A stretch of DNA of 64,000 bases from Candidatus Omnitrophota bacterium (lineage in GTDB: Bacteria; Omnitrophota; Gorgyraeia; Duberdicusellales; 4484-171), in the NCBI GenBank assembly GCA_041652815.1, contig JBAZGN010000004.1, positions 143,890-207,889 of the forward strand. Reading direction: 5' to 3'. Within the stretch, counting starts at the first letter, position 1, and the number at the start of each line of letters is the position of its first letter. Made by a program: the position numbers and the translations under genes. The notes below the pieces were generated by a model. That model saw only the letters and a program-made list of their open reading frames with translations, searched no databases and had not been told where the DNA came from. Positions 27,927 through 48,260 of this stretch are shown piece by piece.

Positions 27927-28757
27927 ATGGAACCTGCTAATGGAAAATATAAAATATTTCTCAAGGGTGGAAAAAACGCAATTCTGCTTATCCACGGCAT
28001 TACCGGTACGCCTTCTGAAATGCGTTACCTGGCAAAATACTTTAATCGAGCCGGATACACTGTCCTTTGTAATACCCTTCCACATCACTGCTCAACATTA
28101 GAGGAGCTTAAACGTGCTACCTGGCAGGAAATCGTCGCCTTATGCATTGAAGATTTTAAATTGCTTAAAAACGAGCACGAAAAAGTCTTTGTTGCAGGTT
28201 TATCTATGGGCGCATTGGTTTCCATACATCTCGCATCAAAATTTCCTGGCGATGTCGCCGGCATTATTGCCTTTGCTCCCACGCTATTTTATGATGGCTG
28301 GGCAGTGCATAAAGGCCAAGTTTTGCTTCCGCTTGCCTGGCACATACCTTATTTTCGTAACAGAATCGATATAAGGGAAAACCCACCTTACGGCCTTAGA
28401 GATGAAAGTTTACGTAATACAATTCACGCTTTCTACAGCAACGCAGGGAAAAGTAATCCGAATGAAAAAGTCGTTTTATTCGGAAGCCCTTTTTTCCCGT
28501 TGGCAAGCCTTTATCAGCACCATAAATTTTCAAAAGTCGTAAAAAAAGAATTACCTAAAGTGAAAACACCTATCCTTATAATGCATGCCAAAGAAGACGA
28601 TATGACAAGCCTTAAGAATGCTAAGTACATATTTAAAAATATCGGTTCACCGGATAAGTTGCTTATTGTCCTTGAAGATTCCTATCACATGATTGTAATT
28701 GACAAGGAAAAAGAGCGTGTCGCCAGTGAGACGATAAAATTCATGTCCAGGCTATAA
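27927..28757 (+). CDS. alpha/beta-hydrolase carboxylesterase / monoacylglycerol-lipase-like
   Basis: HGITGTPSEM oxyanion region. Nucleophile elbow GLSMGALVS. Asp (HAKEDDM) and His (DSYHMIV). Confidence 0.75.
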   Translation: MEPANGKYKIFLKGGKNAILLIHGITGTPSEMRYLAKYFNRAGYTVLCNTLPHHCSTLEELKRATWQEIVALCIEDFKLLKNEHEKVFVAGLSMGALVSIHLASKFPGDVAGIIAFAPTLFYDGWAVHKGQVLLPLAWHIPYFRNRIDIRENPPYGLRDESLRNTIHAFYSNAGKSNPNEKVVLFGSPFFPLASLYQHHKFSKVVKKELPKVKTPILIMHAKEDDMTSLKNAKYIFKNIGSPDKLLIVLEDSYHMIVIDKEKERVASETIKFMSRL

Positions 28758-28771
28758 AAATATTTATTCAA

Positions 28772-30265
28772 ATGAAATATGATGCGATAGTTATCGGTGC
28801 AGGTGTGGGCGGCCTTGCTGCGGCGCTTAAGCTTTCAGCGAGCGGGAAGAAGGTTTTGGTTATTGAAAGGCAACCCATACCCGGCGGCTGCGCAACAGCT
28901 TTTACCCGTAAAGGGTTTACTTTTGAATCCGCAATGCATTGTATTGGCACTCTCGGGCCTGATGGCGAGGTTCGGAGTTTTCTTGAGGAATTCGGTATCG
29001 ATAAAATGGTAGATTTCATTGAGCTTAAAGATTTCTGCCGCATAATCTATCCCGAGCATGATTTTGTCGTTGATTTCAGCAAAGAGAACTTCCTGAATTT
29101 CCTGAAGGAAAAATTTCCTCAGGAATGCCAGAATATAGATAAGCTTTTTTTGCGGTTGGATAAATTTTATAAGCAATTTGATAATTTTTGCCTTTCAAAA
29201 TTACCGCTCGTTTTACAACTTATTTTAAGCCCATTGATTTATCCTGAAATTATAAAACTTTCAAGCCTCACCGTAGCAGAGCTTCTTGGTAAATATCTAA
29301 AAGATGAAAAAATTAAAAGTATCATAGCGGATTTATGGAGATTTGTCGGTGTGCCACCAAGCGCGCTTTCTGCGTTTTATTTTCTGATTATTTTGCGGGC
29401 TTATTATTTCGAAAAAACCTGCTATGTAAAAGGCGGCTACAGTCAGCTTTTTAGGAAAATTGCGAAAAAGATAGAGGAAAACGGCTCGGAAATAAAATAT
29501 AACACAGCTGTTAAAACCATAGTTACCGAAAAAAATCGCGTAAAAGGTGTTATTACCGATAAAGGAGAGGAGTTTTTCGCAAAAACAATAATTTCCAATG
29601 CCAATGCGATTGAAACTTTAAGTGAACTTATTGACAACGCGGGAATTAGAGAAAAATACAGCAATGAGATAACTAGCCTGGAGAAGTCGGTGTCGGTATT
29701 CCAGGTATATTTAGGATTAACCGTACCTGCTAAAACGCTGGGAATGCGTAACTTTATGATTTCTTTAAATACCAGCTACGACCATGATAAAAGTTTTCGC
29801 GACAGCATAAGTGCAGAGCGTGATAATTGTCTTATTGAAATCGTTGACCACGCGCAATTGGATTCATCTTTAGCTCCTCAGGGTAAAGGAACGCTTCTGA
29901 TTATGACATTTGATTCGTACAAAAACTGGGAGGGATTGACTGATGAAGAATATAGGCAAAAGAAAAAAAGTCTTGCAGATAAGTTGATAAAACGGGCAGA
30001 AAAATTGCTTCCCGGGCTATCTCAACGTATAGAACTTATGGAAGTTGCTACCCCAAAGACAATGTACCGCTACACACTTTCTCCGGAAGGAGCAATCTAT
30101 GGTTTTGCTCATTCAGTAAAACAATCGGGAATATTCAGGCTAAGCCAGGAAACTTGCATAAAAGGATTGTTTCTTGCGGGCGCTTGGACTCGTCCGGGTG
30201 CCGGCGTGCATGCGTGTTTTATTTCCGGCCTTGATGCGGCAGAACTCGCGTTGAAACGCAAATAA
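28772..30265 (+). CDS. CrtI/phytoene-desaturase-family FAD-dependent oxidoreductase
   Basis: N-terminal dinucleotide fold YDAIVIGAGVGGLAAALKLSASGKKVLVIERQPIPGGCATAF. 497 aa. C-terminal GxW...PGAG typical of the CrtI / amine-oxidase fold. Confidence 0.75.
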   Translation: MKYDAIVIGAGVGGLAAALKLSASGKKVLVIERQPIPGGCATAFTRKGFTFESAMHCIGTLGPDGEVRSFLEEFGIDKMVDFIELKDFCRIIYPEHDFVVDFSKENFLNFLKEKFPQECQNIDKLFLRLDKFYKQFDNFCLSKLPLVLQLILSPLIYPEIIKLSSLTVAELLGKYLKDEKIKSIIADLWRFVGVPPSALSAFYFLIILRAYYFEKTCYVKGGYSQLFRKIAKKIEENGSEIKYNTAVKTIVTEKNRVKGVITDKGEEFFAKTIISNANAIETLSELIDNAGIREKYSNEITSLEKSVSVFQVYLGLTVPAKTLGMRNFMISLNTSYDHDKSFRDSISAERDNCLIEIVDHAQLDSSLAPQGKGTLLIMTFDSYKNWEGLTDEEYRQKKKSLADKLIKRAEKLLPGLSQRIELMEVATPKTMYRYTLSPEGAIYGFAHSVKQSGIFRLSQETCIKGLFLAGAWTRPGAGVHACFISGLDAAELALKRK

Positions 30266-32729: not shown

Positions 32730-33914
32730 ATGCGAAATATTCTTATTTTTATTTTTGTCTTAATCTCAACCCTAACCTTCTTGCCAATTTCCCAAGCTCA
32801 AAATCAAGAAACCGTGACTATTGCTACTTATTACCCCGCACCTTTCGGAGTTTACAATGAATTAAGAGCTCAGAGAGTGGCAATAGGCGAACATTATGTT
32901 GACAGCACCCAGTATTGTTGGGAGGGAGTCTGTCCTGCCGCTGGAATTCCTAATATTGATTTAGCGGTAGAGGGCCAGACAAGGCTTGGAGCATTATCTG
33001 AAAACCCGCTTGCACCCGGCCCAGCCCTGCTAGTCAGAAAGCCAACTAACTCTGTTTCCGGAGATGCCTCAACTGCGGTAGCTATCTTTCGTTCTCAAGA
33101 TGCAAACTCGACAGATCCAAATCTGTATGGTGACCTTACAATCTATGGTTTTCATGATTCGAACGAAAATTATATGGATAATACAATGATGTTGTATGCT
33201 TCCAGCGGCGGCTACGCCGATAATATTGAAATAGCCGCGAGCGACCCTAATGGCACTATCCGGTTTAATACTGCCGGATCTTTGGAGGCTCACGAGCGCA
33301 TGCGGATTACAAATACCGGCAATGTGGGAATTGGCACAACCAGCCCGCAAGCAAAGTTAGATGTGAATTCAACAACTAGCGGTTTTCTCCCGCCTCGTAT
33401 GACAGAGGCGCAAAGAAATGCAATTTCTTCTCCGGCACAGGGCTCTGTTATTTTTAATACGTCCTCACAGCGAATAAATTATTATGATGGAAGTAGATGG
33501 AGATTGATGATAGGATTCGCTGGAATATATCATATCCAGCGGCGGTCGGACGCGTATGAATTTACATCGGTAGATGGTGCAACGTCGCTATTACCCTATA
33601 GCGCAAGTTGGCCCCCTAATTCAGTGCATTGCTCTACTGACAATCGAATTTGTCTGCAAAAGGGCGACAACACGACACATCCCGGAGTTTTACAGCTGCG
33701 ACTAGAGCCTTATGCTCGCAATTATTGTATTGTAACCCATAATGATGACGATGGCGGTAAGAAACTATATGTAAATCATGATAATGGAGGTAATGCGTGT
33801 AGTAATATGCCCAATGGATGCTTAATGATAAGCACTGAATCTTTTTTTTCCTACCGGCCGGATGTAGATCCCTTGGGCGCAGGCAGCGATTCGTTAGGTT
33901 TTCTTTGTTTCTAA
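32730..33914 (+). CDS. secreted protein with tail-fibre-like G-[IV]-G-T-x-x-P...KLDV motif and Cys-rich C-terminal region
   Basis: Signal peptide FIFVLISTLTFLPISQAQN. Motif NTGNVGIGTTSPQAKLDV typical of phage tail-fibre / surface adhesin repeats. Ten Cys in the last 130 aa. RBS GGAGG at 32717-32721. Confidence 0.45.
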   Translation: MRNILIFIFVLISTLTFLPISQAQNQETVTIATYYPAPFGVYNELRAQRVAIGEHYVDSTQYCWEGVCPAAGIPNIDLAVEGQTRLGALSENPLAPGPALLVRKPTNSVSGDASTAVAIFRSQDANSTDPNLYGDLTIYGFHDSNENYMDNTMMLYASSGGYADNIEIAASDPNGTIRFNTAGSLEAHERMRITNTGNVGIGTTSPQAKLDVNSTTSGFLPPRMTEAQRNAISSPAQGSVIFNTSSQRINYYDGSRWRLMIGFAGIYHIQRRSDAYEFTSVDGATSLLPYSASWPPNSVHCSTDNRICLQKGDNTTHPGVLQLRLEPYARNYCIVTHNDDDGGKKLYVNHDNGGNACSNMPNGCLMISTESFFSYRPDVDPLGAGSDSLGFLCF

Positions 33915-34036
33915 TCGTGTTCTGAAGTATTTAATCGTAGCGCTAAATATTAATTATATTTAGTTAAATCCTTCATTTTAAAAATCGGCCATTCAAAAAC
34001 CCTCCGAAATAAATCCAAGACTTAACCGAATAGAAA

Positions 34037-36230: not shown

Positions 36231-36393
36231 GGTTTTTATGTTGTTTTTACTCAAAGGTTTTGTTAAAGCAGGTATATATTTTTTCTCTAATGGGGTTTAC
36301 AAAATGTAAATTTAGGTTAAAATAATTAAGTCCCATATACATTCTGTCCAATAGGGTGGTTTTAGTTGATCGAGAAAGAGATAAAATATTAAA

Positions 36394-37638
36394 ATGAGAC
36401 AGCAGGAGTTCGTCATAAGTTCGTTAGGCATAGTTAGCCCTAATGGTATAGGAAAAGAGGCGTTTTGGAAGTCGCTTGAAGAAGGCCGTTCTGCGATTTC
36501 AAATATTGAGTCTTTTTCAACGGAGAAATTTTCCGTCAATTGCGCAGGGGAAATAAAGAATTTCGACCCGAAAGTGTTTCTTGGCCCAAAAGGCCTGCGG
36601 AATTTAGACAGAAGTTCACTGTTTTTGATGACAGCGGCAAAATTAGCACTTGATGATGCCAAACTCGCAATAACCGAATCAAACACTGACGACATCGGAG
36701 TTGTAACCGGTACAACTTTTCCGCATTTATGGTCTATGATTGAATTCGACAGAGAAGTTTTTAAGGAAGGATTGGATTTTTCAAATCCCGCGCTTTTTCC
36801 CTCAACTGTTTTAAATGCAGCTTCTTCTCAAGTGTCTATCCGTTTTAATATTCAAGGGTTTAATGCTTCTGTAAGCACAGGCTATACTTCCGGCCTACAA
36901 GCTTTAAAGTATTCGCTTATGATGCTTGAGACAGGTAAAGCCAAAACGGTTTTTTGCGGGGCGGTTGAGGCGCTCGCGCTTTCTTTATTTTTTGGTTTCT
37001 ATAAATTAGGTTATATGGCAGGAATAAACGGGCAAATGATTAGTTGCCCGTTTGACAAGCGCAGAAATGGGCCAATGTTTTCAGAAGCGGCTGCGGTTTT
37101 TTCTATAGAGCATCCTGAAACCGCACAAGCGCGTCAGGCTGAAATTTTAGCGAAGATACGAAGTGTCGCGTGCTATTTTGATGGTTTTAAGATAGCAAGA
37201 ATTCATCCGGATGGAGAAGGCCTTGAAAAAGCAATAGTAAAAGTTTTAGATGAGGCAGGTGTGGCTACAACTGATATTGATTATATTTCAAGCTGTGCCA
37301 ATTCTTCATTTGAAATGGATAAGACGGAAGTGAAAGTTTTACAGAAAATTTTTGGCGATAACCTTTCAAGGATACCAGTAAGTTCTATAAAATCAATGCT
37401 GGGAGAAACGCTTTCTGCAGCCTCAGTTTTGCAGATAGCTTCTTGCATCGGAGCGATGAAGAGCGGCATAATCCCGCCTACAATAAACTACAAAGAAAAA
37501 GACCCGGAATGTGATATTGATTGTGTTCCCAATAAAGCGCAGAAAAAGGATGTAAAATTAGCTTTAGTTGTTTCTTTCGGCCCTGGAGGGTATAATAGTG
37601 CGTGTGTTTTGGAGAAATACGCAGATGATCACGGATAA
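36394..37638 (+). CDS. beta-ketoacyl synthase-fold protein lacking the Cys-His-His catalytic triad (chain-length-factor / KS-beta-like)
   Basis: Aligned to FabF, the ATACTSG active-site Cys is STGYTSG here (Tyr). The first His block HGTST is CANSS. The second, GHxxGAAG, is GETLSAAS. Overall KS fold retained (414 aa). Confidence 0.75.
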   Translation: MRQQEFVISSLGIVSPNGIGKEAFWKSLEEGRSAISNIESFSTEKFSVNCAGEIKNFDPKVFLGPKGLRNLDRSSLFLMTAAKLALDDAKLAITESNTDDIGVVTGTTFPHLWSMIEFDREVFKEGLDFSNPALFPSTVLNAASSQVSIRFNIQGFNASVSTGYTSGLQALKYSLMMLETGKAKTVFCGAVEALALSLFFGFYKLGYMAGINGQMISCPFDKRRNGPMFSEAAAVFSIEHPETAQARQAEILAKIRSVACYFDGFKIARIHPDGEGLEKAIVKVLDEAGVATTDIDYISSCANSSFEMDKTEVKVLQKIFGDNLSRIPVSSIKSMLGETLSAASVLQIASCIGAMKSGIIPPTINYKEKDPECDIDCVPNKAQKKDVKLALVVSFGPGGYNSACVLEKYADDHG

Positions 37639-37759
37639 AAAGCAGATAGTCACAGATTATTTAAAACGTATCAGGTCCCACGTAACAGGTAACAAGTTTT
37701 TACGAACGTGATACCTGCTACTTGATACGTGTTACTTTTTAAACAATTTACGATCATCT

Positions 37760-38515
37760 GTGCAAGATATGAAAGACCTAAAAAACAAAACTGTAATTAT
37801 AACTGGGGGTTCAAGAGGGATAGGCAAGGCTTGTTGTCTTGCATTTGCCAAGGCCGGCGCCAATATAATTTTTACTTTTAACAAAAGCCAGAAAGAAGCT
37901 GACGAACTGGCTGCGCAAATTAAAAATCTTGGCGTGGAGTGTTTAAGCATACAGGCAGATGTGCGGGAATATAATCAGTGCCGTACAATTATTGAAAAAG
38001 CAATCGAACGGTTTAAGGAAATAGATGTTTTGATAAATAATGCTGGTATTACAAAAGATAAATCGCTTTTTATGATGCTTCCGGAAGAGTGGCATGATGT
38101 TATAAATACAAACCTTAACGGAACTTTCAATATGACGAAAGCCACAATCATAACCTTTTTAAAGCAGAAAAAAGGCTGCATAATCAATATGAGTTCAGTA
38201 AGCGGCATTGTGGGGCTGCCGGGACAATCGAATTACAGCGCCTCCAAGGCAGGTATAATAGGTTTTTCAAAAGCGCTGGCAAAAGAAGTCGCAGGGCAAA
38301 ATGTCCGAGTAAATGTAGTTTGTCCGGGTTTTATCGAAACTGATATGGTTGGTTCTATACGCGAAGACATCAAAAAAGAAGTCTTAAAAAGCATTCCGCA
38401 AAAACGTTTGGGAAAAGCAGAAGAAGTTGCGGATTTGTGCGTGTTCTTAGCTTCCGATAAAGCATCATATATTACAGGGGAAACAATAAAGATAGATGGC
38501 GGGTTGGCGATTTGA
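37760..38515 (+). CDS. 3-oxoacyl-ACP reductase (FabG-like SDR)
   Basis: TGGSRGIGKA cofactor motif. NNAG. Catalytic SSVSG...YSASKAG (S-Y-K). 251 aa. Colinear with FabG. Confidence 0.85.
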   Translation: MQDMKDLKNKTVIITGGSRGIGKACCLAFAKAGANIIFTFNKSQKEADELAAQIKNLGVECLSIQADVREYNQCRTIIEKAIERFKEIDVLINNAGITKDKSLFMMLPEEWHDVINTNLNGTFNMTKATIITFLKQKKGCIINMSSVSGIVGLPGQSNYSASKAGIIGFSKALAKEVAGQNVRVNVVCPGFIETDMVGSIREDIKKEVLKSIPQKRLGKAEEVADLCVFLASDKASYITGETIKIDGGLAI

Positions 38516-38626
38516 ACATAGAAGCGGATTACCGCGGAACAAGACACGGATAAACGCAAAGATATCTGTGCGTAAATCCGCGTTTAGATCCGCGACTATC
38601 CGCTTCTAATTATTAAAGGAGGATTT

Positions 38627-38875
38627 ATGTCTGACATAGGTGATTACAAAAGTGAGATTAAAAAGCTGGTTGCTGATATTGCCGAAAAAACTCCGGAAGA
38701 AATAACGGATGATGCCAAGTTCAGCGAAGATTTAGGCATTGACAGTATGATGGCGCTTGAAATAGTCGCCAGCATAGAAAAGAAATATAAAGTTGTTATT
38801 CCTGAAGGCGAAATTCCAAACATACGGTCTTTACAGAATATATATGATTTAATAGAAAAATTAGTTTCAAAATGA
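38627..38875 (+). CDS. acyl carrier protein
   Basis: 82 aa. Phosphopantetheine attachment motif DLGIDSMMALEIV. RBS AAGGAGG at 38614-38620. Confidence 0.85.
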   Translation: MSDIGDYKSEIKKLVADIAEKTPEEITDDAKFSEDLGIDSMMALEIVASIEKKYKVVIPEGEIPNIRSLQNIYDLIEKLVSK

Positions 38876-38881
38876 TGTTTT

Positions 38882-38967
38882 GCACCGCAAAACCGCAAAG
38901 AAGACGCAAAATCGCAAAAAAAAAAAAATCATTTGCGCTTTTACGGCCTTTTGCGTCTTTGCGGTGC
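38882..38967. repeat. long imperfect palindrome with central A13 tract (terminator-like or MITE-like) between ACP and the TA pair
   Basis: GCACCGCAAAACCGCAAAGAAGACGCAAAATCGCAAA, then A13, then TTTGCGCTTTTACGGCCTTTTGCGTCTTTGCGGTGC. Followed by a TTGACA...TATGATACACT promoter-like sequence at ~38980-39008. Confidence 0.5.
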
Positions 38968-39012
38968 GGAGAAGTCATCTTGACATAGTTCATCAAATAT
39001 GATACACTTTCT

Positions 39013-39255
39013 ATGGAGGTGGATGATATGCCTACGAAGAACCCGCGTTTAAATGTAGTTTTAGAACCGCCAGTATATAACGTTCTAAATGTTCTGGCAC
39101 ACCGCAAGGGAATTTCTTTGTCGCTTTTGGCCAGGGATTTAATAAAAGAAGCATTGGAAATTTATGAGGATCTTTATTGGCAGCGTGTTGCAAATTTACG
39201 GGAGAAAACCTTTTCCTATAAAAAAGCTTTGTCGCACAAAGATATTTGGGAATAA
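39013..39255 (+). CDS. ribbon-helix-helix antitoxin (RelB/ParD/CopG-like)
   Basis: NVVLEPPVYNVLNVLAHRKGISLSLLARDLI has RHH topology. Probable true start at 39028 (MPTKN). Overlaps the toxin gene by 10 nt. Confidence 0.6.
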   Translation: MEVDDMPTKNPRLNVVLEPPVYNVLNVLAHRKGISLSLLARDLIKEALEIYEDLYWQRVANLREKTFSYKKALSHKDIWE

Positions 39256-39527
39256 TGGCGTACAACATTTTTTATCATTACGATATCCCAAAGGACCTTT
39301 CAAAAATTCCCGGTAATATAAAGAAACGTATACGTAAGGCAATTGAACAGCGTTTATCGGAAGAACCCTTGAAATATGGAGAACCTTTAAAAAGGAGCCT
39401 TCACGGTTATTGGAAGTTGCGAGTAGGAGACTTTAGGGTTATTTTTAAAATCGAAAAAGAAAATATCGTAATTTTAAAAATTGGCCACAGGCATGATATT
39501 TATTCTAAAGTCGACTCACGCTTGTAA
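39246..39527 (+). CDS. RelE/ParE-family type II toxin
   Basis: 93 aa. Family signature ...LHGYWKLRVGDFRVIFKIEKENIVILKIGHRHDIY. Confidence 0.75.
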   Translation: MGIMAYNIFYHYDIPKDLSKIPGNIKKRIRKAIEQRLSEEPLKYGEPLKRSLHGYWKLRVGDFRVIFKIEKENIVILKIGHRHDIYSKVDSRL

Positions 39528-39567
39528 ATGAAATCTGTGATCATCTGTGTAATATAAAATTATAAAT

Positions 39568-40035
39568 ATGGAAGGCATTTGGGATATAAATAAAATTCAG
39601 GAAATACTGCCGCAGAGGTACCCTTTTTTATTTATTGATAGAGTTATATCAATTGATGAAAAAGAGGGTAAAGTAACCTGCCTTAAAAACTTTACTGCAA
39701 ACGATTATTTTTTCACCGGCCACTTTCCCGGTAAGCCGGTTGTGCCTGGTGTCATTATTATTGAAGCAATGGCGCAGGCAAGTATTATTGGTTTTGCCGC
39801 AATTAAGCCTGAAATTGCAAGTAAGCATCCAACTTATTATCTCGGCAAGGTAGAAGCAAAATTCAGAAAAGCCGTAACTGTGGGCGACCAACTTATCATA
39901 GAAGTAAAAAAAGAAAAAATAGTAAATAATGCAGGCGTAGTTACTGCTGTGGCAAAACTTAATGGAGAAGTGGCGGCTGAAGCTAAAATTATGTTTGGAG
40001 TAATTCCAAATAATCAAGCAAGTGATAATAAATAG
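39568..40035 (+). CDS. 3-hydroxyacyl-ACP dehydratase (FabZ-like hot-dog fold)
   Basis: Catalytic motif FFTGHFPGKPVVPGVIIIEAMAQA (HxxxGxxxxP). Hot-dog length of 155 aa. Confidence 0.85.
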   Translation: MEGIWDINKIQEILPQRYPFLFIDRVISIDEKEGKVTCLKNFTANDYFFTGHFPGKPVVPGVIIIEAMAQASIIGFAAIKPEIASKHPTYYLGKVEAKFRKAVTVGDQLIIEVKKEKIVNNAGVVTAVAKLNGEVAAEAKIMFGVIPNNQASDNK

Positions 40036-40042
40036 CTGGAGA

Positions 40043-40526
40043 AATAACCAAGCTCCAAGATACAAAAACCAAACAATGACCAATAATCAAATTCCAATAA
40101 TCAAACAAAAGGGCTAAAGAATTCGATTTGGAAAAAAGAACTACCGAATTCGCCAAGGCTGTAATCAGGATATGTAAAGATTTACCCAGAAATTCAATGA
40201 ATGATAGATTGATAGGTCAAGTAGTTGGAGCATCTGGTTCTGTTGGGGCAAACTATCGAGAAGCAAATGATGCTTTGGGAAAAAAGGATTTTATTCAAAG
40301 ACTTAAGATTGCTCGAAGAGAAGCCAAAGAAAGTCATCATTGGCTTGAGCTTATTTCTGAAGCTAACACGCATAAAGTAGATGAGATCAAACCGTTGACA
40401 CAAGAAGCTGTAGAGCTTAAAAATATTTTATCAGCAATTATCAATAAGTCAGAATAGTTTTGTTTGGTTATTGATTGTTGAGATTTGTATATTGTTTGGA
40501 GCTTGTATCTTGGTTATTGGTTATTC
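40043..40526. mobile_element. miniature TIR element (family 2) carrying a four-helix-bundle protein gene as cargo, inserted between fabZ-like and the active KS gene
   Basis: Left arm AATAACCAAGCTCCAAGATACAAAAACCAAACAATGACCAATAATCAAATTCCAATAATCAAACAAAA. Right arm is its imperfect reverse complement (...TTTTGTTTGGTTATTGATTG...CTTGGTTATTGGTTATT). An empty relative lies at 8608-8715. Confidence 0.65.
40128..40457 (+). CDS. four-helix-bundle protein (TIGR02436 / 23S-rRNA-intervening-sequence protein family)
   Basis: LIGQVVGASGSVGANYREA...GKKDFIQRLKIARREAKESHHWLELI matches the family core (..SIGANIAEG..R.S.KDF..FL.IA.GS..E....L.L). Confidence 0.8.
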   Translation: MEKRTTEFAKAVIRICKDLPRNSMNDRLIGQVVGASGSVGANYREANDALGKKDFIQRLKIARREAKESHHWLELISEANTHKVDEIKPLTQEAVELKNILSAIINKSE

Positions 40527-40550
40527 ATTTAAATATTTGTGTAAAACAAT

Positions 40551-41756
40551 ATGATTAACAGAGAGGTCGTGGTAACTGGTCTAGGCGCTGTTACCTCAAT
40601 AGGTATAGGAAAGGAAGAATTCTGGTCAAATGTTTTAAAAGGCAAATCCGGCATAAGCGATGTCACTTTATTCGATACTTCAAAATTTAAACGTCATCGC
40701 GCCGGTGAAATAAAAAATTTTAATTCATCCGATTTTATACCTGAAAGTATCGCAAAGTTCATCGGCAGGGCTTCCCAATTTGCTATAGCTGCAACTAAAC
40801 TTGCCCTTGAGGATGCCAATCTTACCTTAGATGACATTGAAATGCAAAAACTTGCAATAATTATCGGTACAACAATGGCTGAATCCAATGTAATGGATTT
40901 TTCCGGAGAAATGTTTATCAAAGAAGAGTGGGGTAGAATTACAAAACAGCTTCTGGTAAACACATTTTCTCCTTCCATTACAAGAAGCATAGGTTATTTT
41001 CTAAAAGCGAAAGGCGAAAATCTCCTAATACCCAATGCCTGCGCAGCCGGAAATTACGCAATCGGATATGGTTTTGATTTGATACGAAAGGGTGAAATTG
41101 AATTTGCTATAGTTGGCGGTGCTGAGGCATTATCGAGAGTAGCATTTCAAGGTTTTCAAAGATTATATGCAATGTCACCTGAAGTTTGCTCGCCATTTGA
41201 CAAGAACCGGCAAGGTATGCTTCTTGGAGAAGGCGCCGGCATTTTGATATTAGAATCTTTGGAAAGAGCAGTAAAAAGAAACGCGCCCATATATGCAAAA
41301 GTTTTGGAATATGGTTTATCCTGTGATGCTTACAATATGACAATTCCAAATAGAATTGGAATAAAAAAAGCTATGGCAAAAGCTATAAAAAATGCAAATA
41401 TCTCGCCCAATGAGATAGATTATATCAACGCTCACGGAACCGGTACAGTGCAGAACGATAAAGAAGAATCGAATGCAATAAAGGAAATTTTTAGAGATGA
41501 AAAAGTAGCTGTCAGTTCCATAAAATCAATGTTGGGACACACTATGGGTGCCGCAAGCGCCTTAGAGGCACTTACCTGTTGTCTTGCCTTAAAAGAAGAT
41601 ATAGCTCCTCCTACTATCAACTTTAAAACCCCTGACCCGCAATGTAACATTGATTGTGTTCCTAACCAAGCAAGAAAAATCAAAATCAACAAAGTTCTAA
41701 ATAATGGTTTTGCCTTTGGCGGTAATAACTGTTGTGTGGTTCTGGGGAAAGCATAG
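40551..41756 (+). CDS. beta-ketoacyl-ACP synthase, catalytically intact (KS-alpha / FabF-like)
   Basis: Active-site Cys in IPNACAAGNYAIG. His blocks INAHGTGT and SMLGHTMGAAS. N-terminal VVVTGLGAVTSIGIG. 401 aa. Confidence 0.85.
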   Translation: MINREVVVTGLGAVTSIGIGKEEFWSNVLKGKSGISDVTLFDTSKFKRHRAGEIKNFNSSDFIPESIAKFIGRASQFAIAATKLALEDANLTLDDIEMQKLAIIIGTTMAESNVMDFSGEMFIKEEWGRITKQLLVNTFSPSITRSIGYFLKAKGENLLIPNACAAGNYAIGYGFDLIRKGEIEFAIVGGAEALSRVAFQGFQRLYAMSPEVCSPFDKNRQGMLLGEGAGILILESLERAVKRNAPIYAKVLEYGLSCDAYNMTIPNRIGIKKAMAKAIKNANISPNEIDYINAHGTGTVQNDKEESNAIKEIFRDEKVAVSSIKSMLGHTMGAASALEALTCCLALKEDIAPPTINFKTPDPQCNIDCVPNQARKIKINKVLNNGFAFGGNNCCVVLGKA

Positions 41757-41938
41757 TCAAAATTAGCTATTTATGTGGTGTAGTAAAAATAGTTATGCCG
41801 AAAATAACGTACAAAATAGAAATAGTTAGCTTGTCCAGGCCTTATCTTATGAACGATTTGTCAAAGATACCCACTATATTTACTTGTTTATTAGAATAAG
41901 CGCTAATATATATATAGCTTATAAATTACAAAATAAAA

Positions 41939-43021
41939 ATGGAAAACAATTTTATAATTAAAAGATGTAAACGCTGTGGATTGCCAAGCGCTTATCCGGG
42001 GATTCTATTGAATGCAAACAAAACTTGCAATTACTGTTCATATTTTGATTTGTATAAGGATAGAGAAATAATTATCAAGAGGCAATTAAAAGAAGATTTT
42101 ACTAGAATTATAAATAATGTTAAAAGAAAAAACAATAAATACGATTGCATTGTAGCCTATAGCGGAGGAAAAGATAGTTCATTTCTCCTATCGTTTCTCA
42201 AAAAGAAATTTAAACTAAAAATTTTAGCACATACCTTAGATCATAGTTTTACTTCAGCGCAGGCGTTTGTAAATATAAAAAAAATTACAAAAGCTCTTAA
42301 GATCGATTCAAAAATTACGAAACCTGACATACGAGTTATGAAAGAATTGTTTCGATTTGCTTTAACAGAAAATATACCTTACCCAAAAGAAATATTGGCA
42401 ATGATGAGCCAAGTTTGCGCTGTCTGTTGGGGAATGGTATTTGGTACAACAATACATTTAGCTACTCAGCTAAAAATACCTCTTATGTGCATAGGATTTA
42501 CTCCTGGCCAATATCCCTCCATAAGTTTAGAGAATTTTTTGAAGGTTGAATCATGTTTATTTCTTTCGAAAAAAGTATATAAAGATGACCCTATGGATGT
42601 AATAAAAATCCTTACCGATCCAATAATTGAAAAATTTGGCGAGAAAGTTCGTAAATATTATTTCAGAAGTCAGTATATTCCAAACGACTTATTCGTTCCA
42701 AAAATATTACTTCCTTTCCATGTGCTCATTGATTACGATGAGAAAACGATACTTAAAGAAATCACAAACTTAGGGTGGATTAAGCCTTCAGATACTGACT
42801 CTTGTTCGACAAATTGCCTTATAAATACCTTAAGTAGTTATATCACTGTAAACAAAAACGGCTATCATCCTTATATAGGTGAATTAAGCCAGCTCGTCCG
42901 TGAAGGAAAAATAAAACGAGAAGAAGCTATAGAAGCCGAAAAAATTGAAAAAGAATCTTATGCAATGAAATTTTCGTGTAAAAAGTTAAAGTTAAATAAA
43001 CATTATCTAATTAAAAGATAA
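41939..43021 (+). CDS. PP-loop ATP-pyrophosphatase superfamily enzyme, WbuX-like (N-acetyl-sugar amidotransferase family) with N-terminal Cys4 zinc ribbon
   Basis: C-x2-C...C-x2-C (CKRCGLP...CNYCSYFD), then the PP-loop SGGKDSS in CIVAYSGGKDSSFLLSFL. Pattern typical of TIGR03573-like proteins. Confidence 0.6.
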   Translation: MENNFIIKRCKRCGLPSAYPGILLNANKTCNYCSYFDLYKDREIIIKRQLKEDFTRIINNVKRKNNKYDCIVAYSGGKDSSFLLSFLKKKFKLKILAHTLDHSFTSAQAFVNIKKITKALKIDSKITKPDIRVMKELFRFALTENIPYPKEILAMMSQVCAVCWGMVFGTTIHLATQLKIPLMCIGFTPGQYPSISLENFLKVESCLFLSKKVYKDDPMDVIKILTDPIIEKFGEKVRKYYFRSQYIPNDLFVPKILLPFHVLIDYDEKTILKEITNLGWIKPSDTDSCSTNCLINTLSSYITVNKNGYHPYIGELSQLVREGKIKREEAIEAEKIEKESYAMKFSCKKLKLNKHYLIKR

Positions 43022-43024
43022 AAA

Positions 43025-44635
43025 ATGCCAGAAAAATATAATAATTGTCCTTCACAGGTAAAGAATTTTAAAAGTGTAATAAATAAAAGTTTACATATAC
43101 TGAATAACGTTGATTCAAAAGTTTTTTTCTCGCCATATTCTACAATTCCAATCATTTCGCAAATGTTAGGACTTAACACTCCTATAGCGGGTAGTGGAGA
43201 TTACCCTTATTCAATTACCTCAATTATTTTTCAGATTGAGAAGGAAAAACAAATATTGCAAGAATTATTCAATATCCCACTTATTGAAAAACGGAAAATT
43301 ATTGATGAAATATATGAAATGATAGCACCAGTTTTATTAGGTGAAGAGGACAATTATATAGAGCTTTTGTTCAATATTAAATATAAAAATGAATTAAGGT
43401 TTGCGTCAATCGATAGTAAAAATAATTTTAAGAGATTATTTAAGGAAAAATTTTCTATACTGCAACCATTTATCGCGCGTTTCAATAATAAGAAAGGTGA
43501 TTTTGGGTATATCGTTCATTACGGTTATTTAGAAGATTTATATAGGGAATATGATTTTTTACAAAAAATTCCAAACTCGCTTGCTAATGAATGGCGTCAA
43601 TATTCTTATCCGATAGTCAACGAAATATTAATAAAAGGTGTTAATACCCGCGTTCCAGGCGTTAAATCCGATATCAATGGTTGGGTAATTTTTGTTACTA
43701 ACCACACACGAGAATTACTTGAAAGCGGAAAGCTACGAAAACATAAGATTCTACAGGCTGCGCGATTAGCGGAAAAATTAGGAGCTAAAATTATCGGTAT
43801 GGGCGGGCTTATTGCCTCATTTGCACAGGGTGGGTATTGGCTTTCTGAACAAATGCCAAATGTTGGTTTCACTACGGGGCATGTATATACTATCGGAAAT
43901 ATTATAGAAATGGCGAGAAATTGTTCAAAAAAAATTAATCTAAATATTAAAAAAGCAACGATAGCGATAGTAGGAGCGGCAGGTTCTATTGGTTCTGGTT
44001 GCGCTAAACTTATTGCGGAAGACAAGCCTAAACATTTTATTCTTCTTGATCTTAGTACGTTTAGCGCAACTCAGAAATTGGAGGAACTTAAAAACAATTT
44101 GCAAAACATTTCTCCGAAAACAAAAATAGTATTATCTAATAATTTCTTTGATGTTAGACAGGCTGACTTGGTGATTGTCGCTACAAATTCTCCCACGTCT
44201 ATTATAAAGCCAGAATATCTCAAAAAGGGAGCAATAATTATTGACGATTCTTTTCCGAAAAACGTTTCCAAGGAAATTCTAAAGATAAGGAATGACATAA
44301 TTTTATTAGAAGGAGGAATGATGCGGCTACCAATTTCCATAGATATTACTTCGGCACGTAATATGCCTGACCTAATGGATCTGCCATTAACACGTGCAGC
44401 TAGTTGTAAGGAAACTTATGGTTGCCTTGCGGAAGTTTTAGTTTTGGCTTTGTATGGTTATAAAAAAAATTATGCTTTAGGATACGCTGATCCAGTATTA
44501 GCTAAAGATATAGTAAACCGCGCAAAAAAAATCGGTTTTTCTTCAGCTCCTCTGCAATGTTTTGACGAAGCGATTGACGACAAAAAATTCATATTAATAA
44601 AGAGGATTTTAAAAAAAGAAAGACAAATTGTTTAA
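43025..44635 (+). CDS. long-chain acyl-[ACP] reductase (cyanobacterial Aar)-like domain with a ~160 aa N-terminal extension of unknown function
   Basis: From ~aa 160 colinear with S. elongatus Aar: ISALGGFTSI vs IIGMGGLIASFA; FTTGNTHTAYVI vs FTTGHVYTIGNI; ATVAVVGATGDIGSAVCRWL vs ATIAIVGAAGSIGSGCAKLI; VLIDGGYPKNL vs IIIDDSFPKNV; YVLNGGVVE vs ILLEGGMMR. Confidence 0.6.
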   Translation: MPEKYNNCPSQVKNFKSVINKSLHILNNVDSKVFFSPYSTIPIISQMLGLNTPIAGSGDYPYSITSIIFQIEKEKQILQELFNIPLIEKRKIIDEIYEMIAPVLLGEEDNYIELLFNIKYKNELRFASIDSKNNFKRLFKEKFSILQPFIARFNNKKGDFGYIVHYGYLEDLYREYDFLQKIPNSLANEWRQYSYPIVNEILIKGVNTRVPGVKSDINGWVIFVTNHTRELLESGKLRKHKILQAARLAEKLGAKIIGMGGLIASFAQGGYWLSEQMPNVGFTTGHVYTIGNIIEMARNCSKKINLNIKKATIAIVGAAGSIGSGCAKLIAEDKPKHFILLDLSTFSATQKLEELKNNLQNISPKTKIVLSNNFFDVRQADLVIVATNSPTSIIKPEYLKKGAIIIDDSFPKNVSKEILKIRNDIILLEGGMMRLPISIDITSARNMPDLMDLPLTRAASCKETYGCLAEVLVLALYGYKKNYALGYADPVLAKDIVNRAKKIGFSSAPLQCFDEAIDDKKFILIKRILKKERQIV

Positions 44636-44646
44636 TTTTTTTTATT

Positions 44647-46080
44647 ATGGATAGATACGATGTGGTTGTAATCGGAGCAGGTATTGGAGGGCTAATCTGT
44701 GGCATTTATTTAGCTAATGCTGGTTTAAAAGTATGCATCATAGAAAAAAATGCTAATGTGGGAGGTTATTGTGCTTCCTTTACAAGAAATAACTATAAAT
44801 TCGATATAGGTGTTCACTATCTGGGTGGTATCAAAAAAGGACTTTTAGGTAAGATTCTGGAAGAACTTGACTTAAAAGATAGAATACAGTTTAATCAATT
44901 TGATCCGGCCGACAAGATTATTATCGATGGAAAAAAAATTTATATTAGAGCAGATCCAAAAGAGACAATCAAAGAATTTATAATTAATTTTCCAAAACAG
45001 AAAGACAATATTGAGAAATTTTTCAGCTTTATAATGGAAAATAATTTTGCTCAAATATATAAGAAAGTTAGCGGTTTAACATTTAGGAATTTATTGGATA
45101 GTTTTTTTGACGATTATGAACTAAAAACGATGATTGAAGGATTAACATATAACATTGGTATTTCAGCCAAATTTGTAGCAGCAATAACTGCAGTGATTTT
45201 ATATAAAGAATACTTATTGGACCCTGGGTATTATCCCATTGGGGGAATGCAGAATTTTCCAGATGCGTTAGCCAATAAATTTGAACAGAATGGCGGTAAA
45301 ATAGTTTTAAATAAGGAAGTTGAAAATATATTTATCCAAAATAAAAAAGTGAAAGGAGTGAAGTTAACTACTGGAGAATTAATAAACTCTAAAATTTTAA
45401 TTTCTAACGTTGATGCTAATCATACATTTAAAAAACTTTTAAATAAAGTAAACAGTAAAGGATATAATCTTTTAAAAAAGCTATATATATCTCCTTCTTT
45501 GTTCGTTGTCTATCTAGGGCTTAAAGAAAATCTAACTAACCTTACAAATGAAACTTGTAATATATGGAGTTTTGATAATCCAATCCAGGACAGCTATTTT
45601 TCTAACTTAAAGAAAAATCTTAAAAATATACCATTTGTCATGGTGAGTTTTCCATCTGCTCACGAATATAGAGAAGAAGACAAAATATCTAATAAAAGTA
45701 CTATGCAAATTTTTCAATTTGCACCATTTGAATCTAAAAGATTTTGGGAAGGCAGTAAAGACTTGATGTATCAAAAAACTATTGAGCGAGTGGAAAAAAT
45801 TTTACCTGGTTTAAAAGATGAAATAAAAATAAGCGTTCTTGCTACTCCTTTTACTTTTTATAAGTATACCTATAGTAAAAATGGCGCTGCTTTTGGTTGG
45901 CTTTCTACCATTGATCAACTAAAATCAACAATATTTCCATGGAAAAGTGAAATAAGCAATCTTTTTTTTGTGGGTCATTGGGTCACCACGGGCGAAGGAC
46001 AAGGTGGTATTTCAAAAGTGATATTTTCTGCAAGAAAAATAGCTATGTTAATTCTTCATGAGATAAGACAAAAAAAGTAA
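44647..46080 (+). CDS. CrtI/phytoene-desaturase-family FAD-dependent oxidoreductase (second paralogue)
   Basis: YDVVVIGAGIGGLICGIYLANAGLKVCIIEKNANVGGYCASF dinucleotide fold. 477 aa. C-terminal GHW...GEGQGG. Confidence 0.75.
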   Translation: MDRYDVVVIGAGIGGLICGIYLANAGLKVCIIEKNANVGGYCASFTRNNYKFDIGVHYLGGIKKGLLGKILEELDLKDRIQFNQFDPADKIIIDGKKIYIRADPKETIKEFIINFPKQKDNIEKFFSFIMENNFAQIYKKVSGLTFRNLLDSFFDDYELKTMIEGLTYNIGISAKFVAAITAVILYKEYLLDPGYYPIGGMQNFPDALANKFEQNGGKIVLNKEVENIFIQNKKVKGVKLTTGELINSKILISNVDANHTFKKLLNKVNSKGYNLLKKLYISPSLFVVYLGLKENLTNLTNETCNIWSFDNPIQDSYFSNLKKNLKNIPFVMVSFPSAHEYREEDKISNKSTMQIFQFAPFESKRFWEGSKDLMYQKTIERVEKILPGLKDEIKISVLATPFTFYKYTYSKNGAAFGWLSTIDQLKSTIFPWKSEISNLFFVGHWVTTGEGQGGISKVIFSARKIAMLILHEIRQKK

Positions 46081-46082
46081 AT

Positions 46083-48260
46083 ATGACTTTATTTGCAGCC
46101 TCATCTTTATTAATATTTGTTACTAGTTTGAGTTTAGCAATTTTTTTATTATGGGATAAAGCTAGGCAAAAACTTAGAAGGATTCTAGCAATCTTTTGCC
46201 TTTTTGCTGTCATATGGGGTTGGGCCGGTTTTAAGTTGGCTGTTGCAGGCTCTATTGAAAAGGCGTTTTATTGGTGGCAGATAGGATATATCTGCATAAT
46301 CTTTACACCGGTTATATATTCTCACTTTGTTTTTACCTTTCTAAATTACCGCAAAAAATTTTTAATTTTTTCATTTTACAGCTTAGCGCTAATTTTCTTA
46401 TTGTTTACATTTCTATCAGAAAAACTATTTTTAGGCAATTTGCGTTTTTCCTTTGAACAAATTTATTGGGTTGATTGGGTAAAATATAAAAATCCGATAT
46501 GGCTGGTATTTTACATTTATTTTTATTGGATAATATTAGGATATTCATTTATGCTGCTCCTAAAAGAATTAAGATGTTCATCTGGATTGAAAAAAGAGCA
46601 GATTAAATATTTCATTCTTGGTTCAATGATGGGATGGCTAGGCGCTCACGGAGATTTCCTTCCTGTCTTTAGGATAGAAATATATCCATACTCCAATTTC
46701 CTAATTGTAATATATCCCGCTATTTGGGCCTACGCCATCCTGAAATACCGTCTCATGGACATCCGCGTTTTTATTTCTCGCGCCGTTACGTTTATAATAA
46801 GCTATACCTTTTTATTAGGCGTTCCTTTTTTCTTTGCTTACAGAATGTATCCAGTTTTATACCCTATATGGGGAAAGCATTGGTGGCTTGCACCGGTTGG
46901 CCTTATGACATTTTTTGCAACACTCGCTCCTTTAGCTTATGATCAAATACGAAGAGGGGTTGAGAATAGATTTTTAGCTGAACAAAAACGCTATCAAAAA
47001 TTATTACTTCAGGCAGCAAGCGGAATGGCAAGGGAACATAATTTAAATAGATTATCGAAGCTCATTGTGTATATTGTTAAAAGGATTGTTAAGATTGATT
47101 TTGCTGCAATTTTTCTTGAGGATAAAGAACATAAAACATATAGACTTAAGGCAATACGTGATTCTGGAGTAGGGGGCTATACTTTAGAGTTTGCTTATGA
47201 TACTGAGTTTATTAGATTTTTAAAAAATAACAAAGAGCCCTATTTATATGAAGAGCTTCCTCTTGGTGTGCAGAGTTCGCTAACTTTTCCAAAACGTATA
47301 AGTCTGATTTTACCGTCTTTGATTGAAGATAATCTTTTGGGTTTCGTGGTTCTGGGAGAAAAAAGCAATCGTGAACCATATTCAGAAGATGACATAAATG
47401 TATTTAAGATACTTACCAATCAGGCAGCGATGACTATCGAGAACTGTTTGTTTTTCGATGAATTTAAAAACGCGCAAGAAAAAATATTTACTGCGGAAAA
47501 ATTAGCTTCAATAGGCGGTATGGCTGACGGAGTTGCGCATCAGATAAAAAACCGGCTTAATCATTTTTCTATAGCATCAGGAGAACTCAAGTGCGAAATA
47601 GAAGATTTCATTTCTAAGCGCAAACCACTTGTTGAACAAAATCCTGATTTAGCTAAAACTTTTGAGTACGCTATTGAAATAGCCAATTCTTTGATAAAGA
47701 ATGTAAAGATGACAGATGGTATTGTAAGAGGCATATTAACTTATGCTCGTGTTGAAGAAAAAGAAACATTCTTTTCTCATTTTTCCCTGAAGGAAGTCAT
47801 CGATGCTGCACTTGAGTTGCTTAAGATAAAACATGAGCTTCAGGAATTTCCTTTGCAGATTGACTTAGATAATTGTGATATGATTTATGGTGTAAAAGCG
47901 CAGATTATGGAATCAATGTATAACATTCTCGACAACGGCTATGAGGCTAGTTTGGATAAGAAACATCATCTCTCAAGAGAGGAAAAGGAAAAATTTACGC
48001 CTTTGATTAAGCTTAAGCTTACAGAAGGAAGTAATAATTACCGTATTGAAATTTCCGATAATGGATCAGGCATTAAAGATGAAGCCAAACAAAAGATATT
48101 CGCCCCATTTTTTACCACAAAATCCTCCTACAAATCAGGAACCGGCATTGGTATGTATGTGGTTAGAAGAATTGTCGAAGAAAACCACAAAGGCCGAATC
48201 TGGTTCGAATCCGCCCATATGCAGGGAACAAAGTTCATAATCGAATTGCCGAAAAAATAA
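46083..48260 (+). CDS. sensor histidine kinase: N-terminal ~8-TM sensor module, GAF domain, HisKA, HATPase_c
   Basis: Polytopic N-terminus. GAF-like middle. H-box GGMADGVAHQIKNRLN. N/G boxes ISDNGSGI...FTTK...GTGIGMYVV. Confidence 0.8.
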   Translation: MTLFAASSLLIFVTSLSLAIFLLWDKARQKLRRILAIFCLFAVIWGWAGFKLAVAGSIEKAFYWWQIGYICIIFTPVIYSHFVFTFLNYRKKFLIFSFYSLALIFLLFTFLSEKLFLGNLRFSFEQIYWVDWVKYKNPIWLVFYIYFYWIILGYSFMLLLKELRCSSGLKKEQIKYFILGSMMGWLGAHGDFLPVFRIEIYPYSNFLIVIYPAIWAYAILKYRLMDIRVFISRAVTFIISYTFLLGVPFFFAYRMYPVLYPIWGKHWWLAPVGLMTFFATLAPLAYDQIRRGVENRFLAEQKRYQKLLLQAASGMAREHNLNRLSKLIVYIVKRIVKIDFAAIFLEDKEHKTYRLKAIRDSGVGGYTLEFAYDTEFIRFLKNNKEPYLYEELPLGVQSSLTFPKRISLILPSLIEDNLLGFVVLGEKSNREPYSEDDINVFKILTNQAAMTIENCLFFDEFKNAQEKIFTAEKLASIGGMADGVAHQIKNRLNHFSIASGELKCEIEDFISKRKPLVEQNPDLAKTFEYAIEIANSLIKNVKMTDGIVRGILTYARVEEKETFFSHFSLKEVIDAALELLKIKHELQEFPLQIDLDNCDMIYGVKAQIMESMYNILDNGYEASLDKKHHLSREEKEKFTPLIKLKLTEGSNNYRIEISDNGSGIKDEAKQKIFAPFFTTKSSYKSGTGIGMYVVRRIVEENHKGRIWFESAHMQGTKFIIELPKK

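Follow-up and report, generated by a model that had tools for sequence, protein, structure and literature searches.

Gene content and two-module organisation of the locus

The window analysed here is a stretch of 64,000 nucleotides from the genome of a Candidatus Omnitrophota bacterium (contig JBAZGN010000004.1, positions 143,890 to 207,889), which carries a row of plus-strand genes for a type II fatty acid synthase (FAS)- or polyketide synthase (PKS)-like system organised as two modules. Module A (36394-41756), the chain-building set, encodes a catalytically dead FabF homologue resembling a chain length factor (CLF) (36394..37638; PF00109/PF02801), a FabG-type 3-oxoacyl-acyl carrier protein reductase, the ketoreductase (KR) of the set (37760..38515; TIGR01830, with the S...YxxxK motif in its sequence), a divergent dedicated acyl carrier protein (ACP) (38627..38875; PF00550, DS phosphopantetheine motif), a FabZ-type 3-hydroxyacyl-ACP dehydratase (DH) (39568..40035; NF000582) and an active FabF-like ketosynthase (KS) (40551..41756). 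Module B (41939-46080 together with the first ~220 codons of the kinase gene that follows) encodes PPL, a PP-loop ATP pyrophosphatase of NASAT/WbuX type (41939..43021), AARL, a predicted Cys-dependent NAD(H) enzyme resembling Aar and TAD with a helical N-terminal domain specific to its family (43025..44635), and a flavoenzyme of the CrtI/CrtISO family (44647..46080; PF01593), read earlier as CrtI-like and a divergent member of that family (TIGR02734 E=1e-42, below cutoff). The kinase itself, HK1, is a seven-transmembrane (7TM) GAF histidine kinase on the same strand (46083..48260; PF16927, GAF, HATPase). Profile searches upheld the coordinates, the plus strand and the family assignments of the eight genes from the CLF-like to the CrtI-like one, as called by an earlier sequence-only reading of this DNA, and the gene order CLF-KR-ACP-DH-KS-PPloop-AarLike(-CrtI) recurs in independent genomes, so that the arrangement is not due to chance.

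The same reading had treated the row as a single cluster, and in this respect it did not hold. In a close relative from the same metagenome (locus L028), whose module A proteins are 87-91% identical to those of the window, synteny starts at position 26.7 kb, runs up to where the KS gene ends and resumes from kinase codon ~220 onward, and the place of PPL-AARL-CrtI is taken by a third KS-family gene (14367-15671 of L028; 434 aa), which aligns to the fabF model with 190 bits over the C-terminal two-thirds. The swapped segment of the window (41757-46742) has a GC content of 31.1%, lower than in any other 5-kb window of the 64-kb stretch (mean 37.6%, sd 2.4), and is thus compositionally foreign. 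Since module A occurs without the release genes in L028 and in a further locus, L029, since PPL and AARL occur without module A elsewhere, and since the segment is of low GC, the locus is not one indivisible cluster; it consists of two modules, of which module B is an optional, separately inherited cassette.

The downstream border of the swap lies inside the HK1 gene. Compared with the corresponding kinase of L028, HK1 is chimeric, with residues 1-200 (the 7TM sensor) 18-31% identical and residues 250-725 78-96% identical; the breakpoint falls on the border of the sensor and cytoplasmic parts, and the sensor (~aa 1-220, 46083-46742) belongs to the low-GC swapped segment. The sensor has its nearest match, at 44% identity, in the kinase following PPL-AARL-CrtI in the distant locus L009, and for the cytoplasmic part the identity is 88% with L028 and 32% with L009. 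By analogy, this pattern resembles the co-variation of synthase and receptor in quorum-sensing loci. A HisKA_7TM kinase stands directly 3' of the cassette not only in the window but also in L009, L011, L013, L015, L021 and L022.

Three HisKA_7TM kinases are grouped in the window (46083-48260 on the plus strand; 48264-49883 and 49880-51490 on the minus strand), with a response regulator at 51716-52108 (-) and an XRE-cupin regulator beyond the group at 52657-53208 (-). The two minus-strand kinases have near-identical cytoplasmic halves and different 7TM halves.

Module A and its relation to the anammox ketosynthase pair

The sequence-only reading had taken the combination of an active and an inactive KS as a mark of a KS/CLF-type system rather than canonical FAS-II, and this is borne out. 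Alignment with E. coli FabF confirmed that the product of the 36394 gene lacks the catalytic triad (Cys→Tyr, His→Cys and His→Glu, giving Tyr/Cys/Glu) and that the KS encoded at 40551 has Cys/His/His intact; for these alignments the anammox sequences were copied from HMMER alignments. Among solved structures, the best match of the active KS is 9s5h_B (amxFabF2; 463.6 bits, compared with 351 for Iga11 and 325 for Bacillus subtilis FabF) and that of the inactive one is 9s5h_C (amxFabFmut; 299.5 bits, compared with about 216 for canonical FabFs), the two subunits of a KS/CLF-like heterodimer from anammox bacteria which was shown experimentally to decarboxylate malonyl-ACP (preprint 10.64898/2026.05.19.726425). 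For the ACP the best solved matches are 9s5i_E (amxACP; 46.9 bits), 7qv0_D (46.6) and 7auf (45.5). The KS of the window shares 51% of its residues with amxFabF2 and 36% with E. coli FabF; for the CLF-like protein the identities are 39% with amxFabFmut and 30% with E. coli FabF.

The second catalytic His is replaced by Glu in every CLF-like protein examined, amxFabFmut included. At the position of the active-site Cys, the Gln found in the CLF of classical aromatic type II PKS is not present in the window, which has Tyr, and in related loci the position is taken by Phe, Cys, Ala, Ile or Val; in the CLF-like protein of L009 (5035-6261) the Cys is kept (STGCASS) and both catalytic His are gone. 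On account of the best solved matches, the identities and the common change of His to Glu, module A is assigned by sequence to the amx-type KS/CLF family, as a member with its own FabG and without a B12 radical S-adenosylmethionine (SAM) enzyme.

Regarding the profile scores, FabG reaches 310.6 bits against TIGR01830 (cutoff 297.75) and FabZ 147.6 bits against NF000582 (cutoff 113), the amxFabZ score of 126 bits leaving no real margin over canonical FabZ at 121. The ACP, with ~52 bits, lies under every AcpP cutoff (70-106), and the KS, with 401 bits, fails the fabF equivalog cutoff of 494 and lies exactly on the cutoff of PRK07314. The genes fabD, fabH and fabI are missing from the cluster, as read earlier, and neither these nor acc and plsX were detected among the scanned open reading frames (ORFs) of at least 120 aa, which make up most ORFs of the 64-kb window. 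An acyltransferase, a KSIII and an enoyl reductase (ER) were likewise absent from both cluster and window.

Clustered at 90% identity, proteins of the CLF-like type that are at least 53% identical to that of the window form >120 clusters; the named ones are nearly all from Omnitrophota, and they far outnumber the clusters of AARL. In a complete Omnitrophota genome of 1.5 Mb, CLF-KR-ACP-DH-KS stands alone amid unrelated housekeeping genes, and a set of the amx-type KS/CLF pair, ACP, FabZ and CrtI-like protein occurs in Omnitrophota, non-anammox Planctomycetia and Acidobacteriota. Module A is thus widespread and self-sufficient, and it may be the main elongation system of the phylum.

The closest described relative is anammox cluster I (kuste3603-3608), which encodes amxACP, amxFabZ, amxFabF2, amxFabFmut, a phytoene dehydrogenase-like protein (PDH) and a B12 radical SAM enzyme; it has been described only in ladderane producers, and a role in ladderane synthesis has been proposed and remains unproven (PMC10139942; PMC4790861). 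Both loci have an active FabF-like KS with a triad-less partner carrying the change of His to Glu, a divergent ACP, a FabZ and a CrtI-family flavoenzyme. The window differs in having its own FabG, the pair of PP-loop and Aar-like proteins and the 7TM kinase, in lacking a B12 radical SAM enzyme, and in showing moderate identities only, as given above for KS and CLF. No cobalamin-dependent radical SAM gene was detected between 27.9 and 52 kb, where the YgiQ protein scores 17 bits against TIGR04072, and a radical SAM protein encoded at 10975-12072 has no B12 domain. The occurrence of the amx-type core outside anammox bacteria separates generic chain building from the possibly ladderane-specific B12 radical SAM enzyme and offers comparators in other lineages. 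Omnitrophota are not known to make ladderanes.

The most anammox-like arrangement among the loci seen is L007, on contig JBLIRO010000013.1 of a metagenome-assembled genome (12222-21040), in which AARL is followed by genes for three B12-binding radical SAM enzymes, a cyclopropane-synthase-like methyltransferase and three CrtI-like ORFs. This locus was considered as a ladderane cluster outside anammox bacteria and rejected, its radical SAM proteins scoring 43-83 bits against TIGR04072 (cutoff 360) and its KS being 55% identical to amxFabF2.

The PP-loop and Aar-like proteins of the cassette

PPL matches the WbuX family over its full length (E=2e-39, below cutoff; TIGR03573, 135.8 bits against a cutoff of 203.2), in agreement with its earlier description as a WbuX-like PP-loop enzyme, and is 18% identical to NASAT. 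It has the NASAT fold, and with WbuX, WbpG, PseA and LpNASAT (8wex) it shares the PP-loop SGGKDS and the zinc-binding tetracysteine motif CxxC...CxxC (pattern CxxCxn[GN]xCxxC). It differs from them in three additional invariant Cys, in its genomic partners, which are an ACP and an Aar-like protein, and in the absence of sugar-nucleotide genes nearby. Neither a HisH/HisF-like donor nor sugar-context neighbours of PPL were detected in any locus.

AARL is a free-standing protein of 536 aa with an N-terminal helical domain of 153 residues followed by an Aar-like body. The sequence-only reading had seen both an Aar-like C-terminal part and a new N-terminal domain, and both were recovered: the C-terminal part matches Aar, catalytic Cys included, and about 155 residues at the N-terminus are without a family match. 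The score against the Aar model TIGR04058 is 81 bits (cutoff 449.7, which is not reached), and the best match in both NCBIfam and PDB is the N-terminal region of PigE. Conserved residues are Cys467, D342 and D407-D408-S409. All 110 family members have an acidic residue where Rossmann β2 ends, and 107 of the 110 have DD(S/A)xP in the loop next to the nicotinamide; the corresponding motifs are LCDV and DDSGP in TAD, LILTAR and DGGYP in Aar, and a residue that is not acidic and DVALP in PigE. By its sequence AARL is an intermediate form between Aar/PigE and TAD, very probably with an acyl-Cys intermediate and probably with use of NAD(H). The earlier prediction of reductive release as an aldehyde is supported by the Aar match and the Cys, but it is rendered insecure by the TAD-type motifs at the cofactor site and by the amidotransferase-type partner, and a nitrogen-bearing end group is plausible.

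AARL homologues form about 150 clusters in 5.8 billion proteins and are found in Omnitrophota, Planctomycetia/Pirellulales, Acidobacteriota, Poribacteria and one spirochaete; the N-terminal domain is confined to 18 of 1.84 billion representative clusters, always in this architecture. AARL loci were obtained by an alignment-based search of genome contigs, a search with the single AARL sequence having given no match. Shorter Aar-like proteins of 370-418 aa, which keep the Aar-type NADPH motifs and have neither the N-terminal domain nor a PPL partner, are encoded directly 5' of 7TM kinases in two Omnitrophota loci (L015, 8370-9482; L008, 2-1258), so that the link between Aar-like proteins and 7TM kinases is wider than the cassette.

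Regarding gene neighbourhoods, PPL lies directly 5' of AARL, mostly overlapping it by a few bases, in the window and in each of the 16 informative non-redundant loci, which span four phyla (Omnitrophota, Planctomycetia, Acidobacteriota and a spirochaete), and an ACP is nearly always close by. The order is CLF-KR-ACP-DH-KS-PPL-AARL(-nitroreductase)-CrtI(-7TM kinase) in Omnitrophota and one Planctomycetia locus and PPL-AARL-ACP-CrtI-KS-CLF-KR-hydrolase-CrtI in Acidobacteriota, and a minimal version in the spirochaete (L005, 8.6-13.5 kb) consists of ACP-PPL-AARL-FAAL (fatty acyl-AMP ligase) and has no KS. Homologues of the CrtI-like gene follow 3' of AARL in L004, L009-L011, L016 and L024. In L013 (7217-12173) and in L022 (Omnitrophota, Tibet), the genes immediately 5' of ACP-PPL-AARL-7TM kinase encode a FeeM-like N-acyl amino acid synthase of the GNAT type and a PilZ protein. 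More distant PPL relatives (33-36% identity; L026, 6155-8990; L027, 5141-8975) are encoded beside a carrier-like protein of ~90 aa and an AMP-binding enzyme, from which PPL-type enzymes seem generally to act with carrier-bound acyl groups.

In L013 and L022 KS and CLF are absent, and type IV pilus or type II secretion system genes lie upstream. The trio of L026 and L027 is located inside glycosyltransferase-rich polysaccharide loci, with a second, NAD-synthase-like PP-loop gene in L027. Four Omnitrophota loci (L009, 11608-12204; L010, 10617-11204; L011, 11592-12179; L012, 11575-12063) have, between AARL and CrtI, a gene for a nitroreductase-family flavoprotein of about 195 aa, which is absent from the window. 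XRE-cupin regulators and PilZ proteins also recur in the neighbourhood.

Several described systems have parts in common with the cassette. In koreenceine biosynthesis (kecA-K, Pseudomonas koreensis), a type II KS/CLF and ACP work with an Aar-like (COG5322) domain, which is proposed to reduce the thioester before nitrogen is installed (PMC6498172). As in KecF and PigE, the Aar-like part of AARL would act on a thioester of an ACP-type system, and nitrogen ends up at the chain end in those two; their Aar-like domain is fused to a pyridoxal phosphate-dependent aminotransferase, whereas AARL has the helical N-terminal domain and a PP-loop partner, and the loop of PigE reads DVALP against DDSFP in AARL. 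For TAD, likewise an Aar-like domain, release as a primary amide has been proposed; its features are an invariant Cys, a NAD-specific Asp and an Asp-Asp-Ser-Gly-Pro loop, the second Asp of which lies against the nicotinamide at the position of a Gly in Aar, and its nitrogen source was left open, no conserved partner having been found (10.1101/2024.10.28.620694). AARL shares with TAD (carmabin, vatiamide and hectoramide nonribosomal peptide synthetases, NRPSs; PDB 9e4s, 9e4x) the invariant Cys, the acidic end of β2 and the DDSxP loop. TAD, however, is the C-terminal domain of NRPS modules and of putative activity, whereas AARL is free-standing, is linked to an ACP and is in every case accompanied by a PP-loop partner; the match between them is confined to the Rossmann core (83 bits), and the window has no NRPS genes. 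With cyanobacterial Aar, AARL shares a TTG motif and the equivalent of Cys294 (FACFAE in Aar, YGCLAE in AARL), but the acidic residue and DDSFP of AARL correspond to TAR (NADPH-type) and DGGYP in Aar, which lacks the extra domain of 153 residues; a gene resembling aldehyde-deformylating oxygenase (Ado) was not found in the window.

Regarding module A, the highly reducing type II PKS of ishigamide (Iga10-16) and the aryl-polyene systems (Ape) likewise combine KS/CLF, KR, DH and ACP without an ER, but the CLF of the window is much nearer to amxFabFmut than to any other solved CLF listed, and the scanned ORFs of the window include none of the aryl-polyene genes (adenylating starter enzyme, thioesterase, lysophospholipid acyltransferase/glycosyltransferase, LolA/MMPL export). 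The locus thus lacks at least one defining feature of each of these known systems. The sequence-only reading had recognised the combination from no described pathway; anammox cluster I and koreenceine are precedents for parts of it, and the PPL-AARL pair was found in no description. The literature examined, whose coverage is incomplete and hence weak evidence of absence, holds no account of this pair, of the AARL N-terminal domain or of amx-type clusters outside anammox bacteria, and nothing specific on Omnitrophota ketosynthases, FabF or lipids. The locus is therefore classified as a type II FAS/PKS-like system of known parts with an undescribed off-loading cassette.

Proposed pathway and alternative explanations

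To the following pathway of lipid or polyketide type, in which amx-type chain building is coupled to a separate release and tailoring cassette, we give an even chance. The KS and its triad-less CLF-like partner would pair as a heterodimer and, by analogy with the anammox heterodimer, prime themselves by decarboxylation of malonyl-ACP, and KS/CLF, KR, DH and ACP would build a short- to medium-chain acyl-ACP. The sequence-only reading had expected the chain to stay unsaturated; the absence of an ER from the window is consistent with an enoyl or polyenoyl chain, but a trans-acting ER or the CrtI-like enzymes could alter this. Using NAD(H), AARL would accept the ACP-bound acyl chain on its Cys467, and PPL, as its obligate and translationally coupled partner, would spend ATP to adenylate the carbonyl oxygen, which nitrogen would then replace. 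The CrtI-like flavoenzyme would alter the double-bond pattern, and the product would probably act at the membrane or be sensed by the adjoining 7TM histidine kinase.

Most likely a C1-modified lipid is released, with an aldehyde on the one hand and an amide-derived amidine or nitrile, or an amine, on the other about equally likely. Judged by analogous enzymes, it would be chemically reasonable for an amide to form on the acyl-enzyme and be converted to an amidine in the manner of NASAT or to a nitrile in the manner of QueC, or for the thioester to become a thioimidate which is then reduced to an amine, as in QueF. Release with nitrogen is favoured by the fact that two characterised Aar-like relatives, PigE and KecF, are both fused to aminotransferases that install it. 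The strictly conserved pairing of PPL with an Aar/TAD-like protein offers a testable candidate route by which Aar-like Cys enzymes could bring nitrogen onto a thioester, and if this is true, PPL would be the missing type of nitrogen-handling partner for TAD-like enzymes.

Several points weigh against this pathway. PPL lies under the curated WbuX threshold and its substrate is not readable from sequence, and no gene for a glutaminase or another ammonia donor is conserved beside PPL in the loci examined. Taken as a whole, AARL is nearer to Aar and PigE, with full-length matches of 111-120 bits, than to TAD, whose match of 83 bits is confined to the Rossmann core, and since Aar and PigE are true reductases, a simple aldehyde-forming reductase is fully possible. 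The solitary occurrence of module A in the 1.5 Mb genome and its being very common in Omnitrophota fit a core function. L028, which has no cassette, carries an HK1-type sensor (44% identical) on another kinase, and this weakens a strict pairing of cassette and sensor. No product is known for any member of the family, for the anammox cluster or for TAD.

The swap of the cassette together with the sensor domain of the kinase suggests that the product may be a sensed signal, which would give a first handle on signalling in a phylum without cultured, genetically tractable members. In its strongest form, this idea combines two claims: that PPL and AARL represent a new off-loading chemistry (ACP thioester + ATP + ammonia + NAD(H) to an amidine, nitrile or primary amine lipid), and that the cassette and the co-swapped 7TM sensor are a signal synthase and its receptor, present in alternative 'pherotype-like' versions among close Omnitrophota, like the hypervariable agrB-D-C region of staphylococci. 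That both are true is quite unlikely.

A possible though unlikely alternative is that module A represents the main fatty acid elongation of Omnitrophota, a KS/CLF-type FAS-II with FabD and the enoyl reductase encoded elsewhere, from which module B diverts some acyl-ACP to fatty aldehyde or alcohol, as might be used in membrane lipids of ether or wax type. The abundance of the CLF-like protein in this phylum (>120 clusters), the five-gene core standing alone among housekeeping genes, the FabG and FabZ scores above the NCBIfam cutoffs, the KS score on the PRK07314 cutoff and a report that metagenome-assembled Omnitrophota genomes are able to make fatty acids (PMC8542988) all agree with it. A housekeeping role sits less well with the ACP, which stays under the AcpP cutoffs and has the specialised amxACP as its best solved match, with the KS, which stays under the fabF equivalog cutoff, with the absence of fabD, fabH and fabI from the ORFs scanned in the 64 kb, and with anammox bacteria and Acidobacteriota (a 4.9 Mb Terriglobia genome), where a homologous pair coexists with canonical FabF.

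Two further alternatives concern the nature of the chain. That the whole row is one secondary-metabolite cluster, in which a conjugated polyene of aryl-polyene or ishigamide style is released by the Aar-like enzyme as a polyenal and tailored later by the PP-loop and CrtI-like enzymes, appears improbable: the modules are separable and unlike in composition, the cofactor-site motifs of AARL are of TAD rather than Aar type, the spirochaete version has a fatty acyl-AMP ligase and no KS, so that the release pair needs no polyene, the characterised relatives from anammox bacteria, FabZ and KS/CLF, favour substrates that are short and saturated, and the aryl-polyene accessory genes are all absent from the scanned ORFs. 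In its favour, KS/CLF, KR, DH and ACP without an ER are what a highly reducing type II PKS is made of, among solved structures Iga11 comes second for the KS, AARL has the Aar fold with its catalytic Cys, and koreenceine offers a precedent for KS/CLF with an Aar-like releasing domain. Synthesis of a ladderane-type or other cyclised, methylated lipid, as proposed for the anammox cluster, is given next to no weight. The homology to amxFabF2, amxFabFmut, amxACP and the CrtI-like PDH speaks for it, as does the related locus L007 with its three B12 radical SAM genes and cyclopropane-synthase-like methyltransferase, but the radical SAM scores of that locus are far under the TIGR04072 cutoff, and no B12-binding radical SAM enzyme is encoded in or beside the cluster of the window, the YgiQ at 34037 being of a different family. 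Ladderanes are known only from anammox bacteria.

Further features of the window

A promoter-like site, TTTACA-16-TAAAAT (36296..36323, plus strand; consensus match 10/12), lies 70 nt 5' of the first gene; it is a consensus match only, from a promoter and terminator scan that barely exceeds the shuffled expectation. No strong plus-strand terminator was found inside 36394-48260, and Rfam gave no riboswitch in the 580-nt gap 5' of the cluster, its sole match in the window being one tRNA.

Small insertions, not mentioned in the sequence-only reading, split the gene row on the plus strand. A toxin-antitoxin pair (39013..39527), consisting of a ribbon-helix-helix (RHH) antitoxin (39013-39255; PF07878) and a RelE/ParE toxin (39246-39527; PF05016), lies between ACP and DH, and a gene for a four-helix-bundle / 23S rRNA IVP protein (40128..40457; TIGR02436, 85 bits) lies between DH and KS. 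The syntenic L028 has neither of them at these places; they are strain-specific insertions, and the toxin-antitoxin pair does not belong to the pathway. A second IVP gene is located at 52161-52574 (-).

Upstream of the cluster, an α/β-hydrolase and a second CrtI/CrtISO-like flavoenzyme are encoded on the plus strand (27927..30265; Pfam/NCBIfam matches). As the Terriglobia cluster holds a hydrolase and a second CrtI, this pair was considered for membership of the system; the hydrolases share a match of only E=2e-4 over 73 residues, so that the pair was rejected as system members and is kept as possible accessories of low confidence. Between this pair and the cluster, at 30471-35812, there are genes of envelope type, namely an ArnE/ArnF-like pair of small transporters (-), a DegT-type sugar aminotransferase, a secreted protein with a PTL_trimer domain and the YgiQ radical SAM protein; all of these are syntenic in L028 and not conserved in other loci. 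Further upstream, at 12889-15186 and 23838-26354, genes for a spermine-synthase-domain protein of 765 aa, a class-III aminotransferase and an arginase-family protein suggest polyamine metabolism, with no link to the cluster seen. The AARL protein of the window is identical to NCBI protein M0R48_03095 (Candidatus Omnitrophica bacterium).

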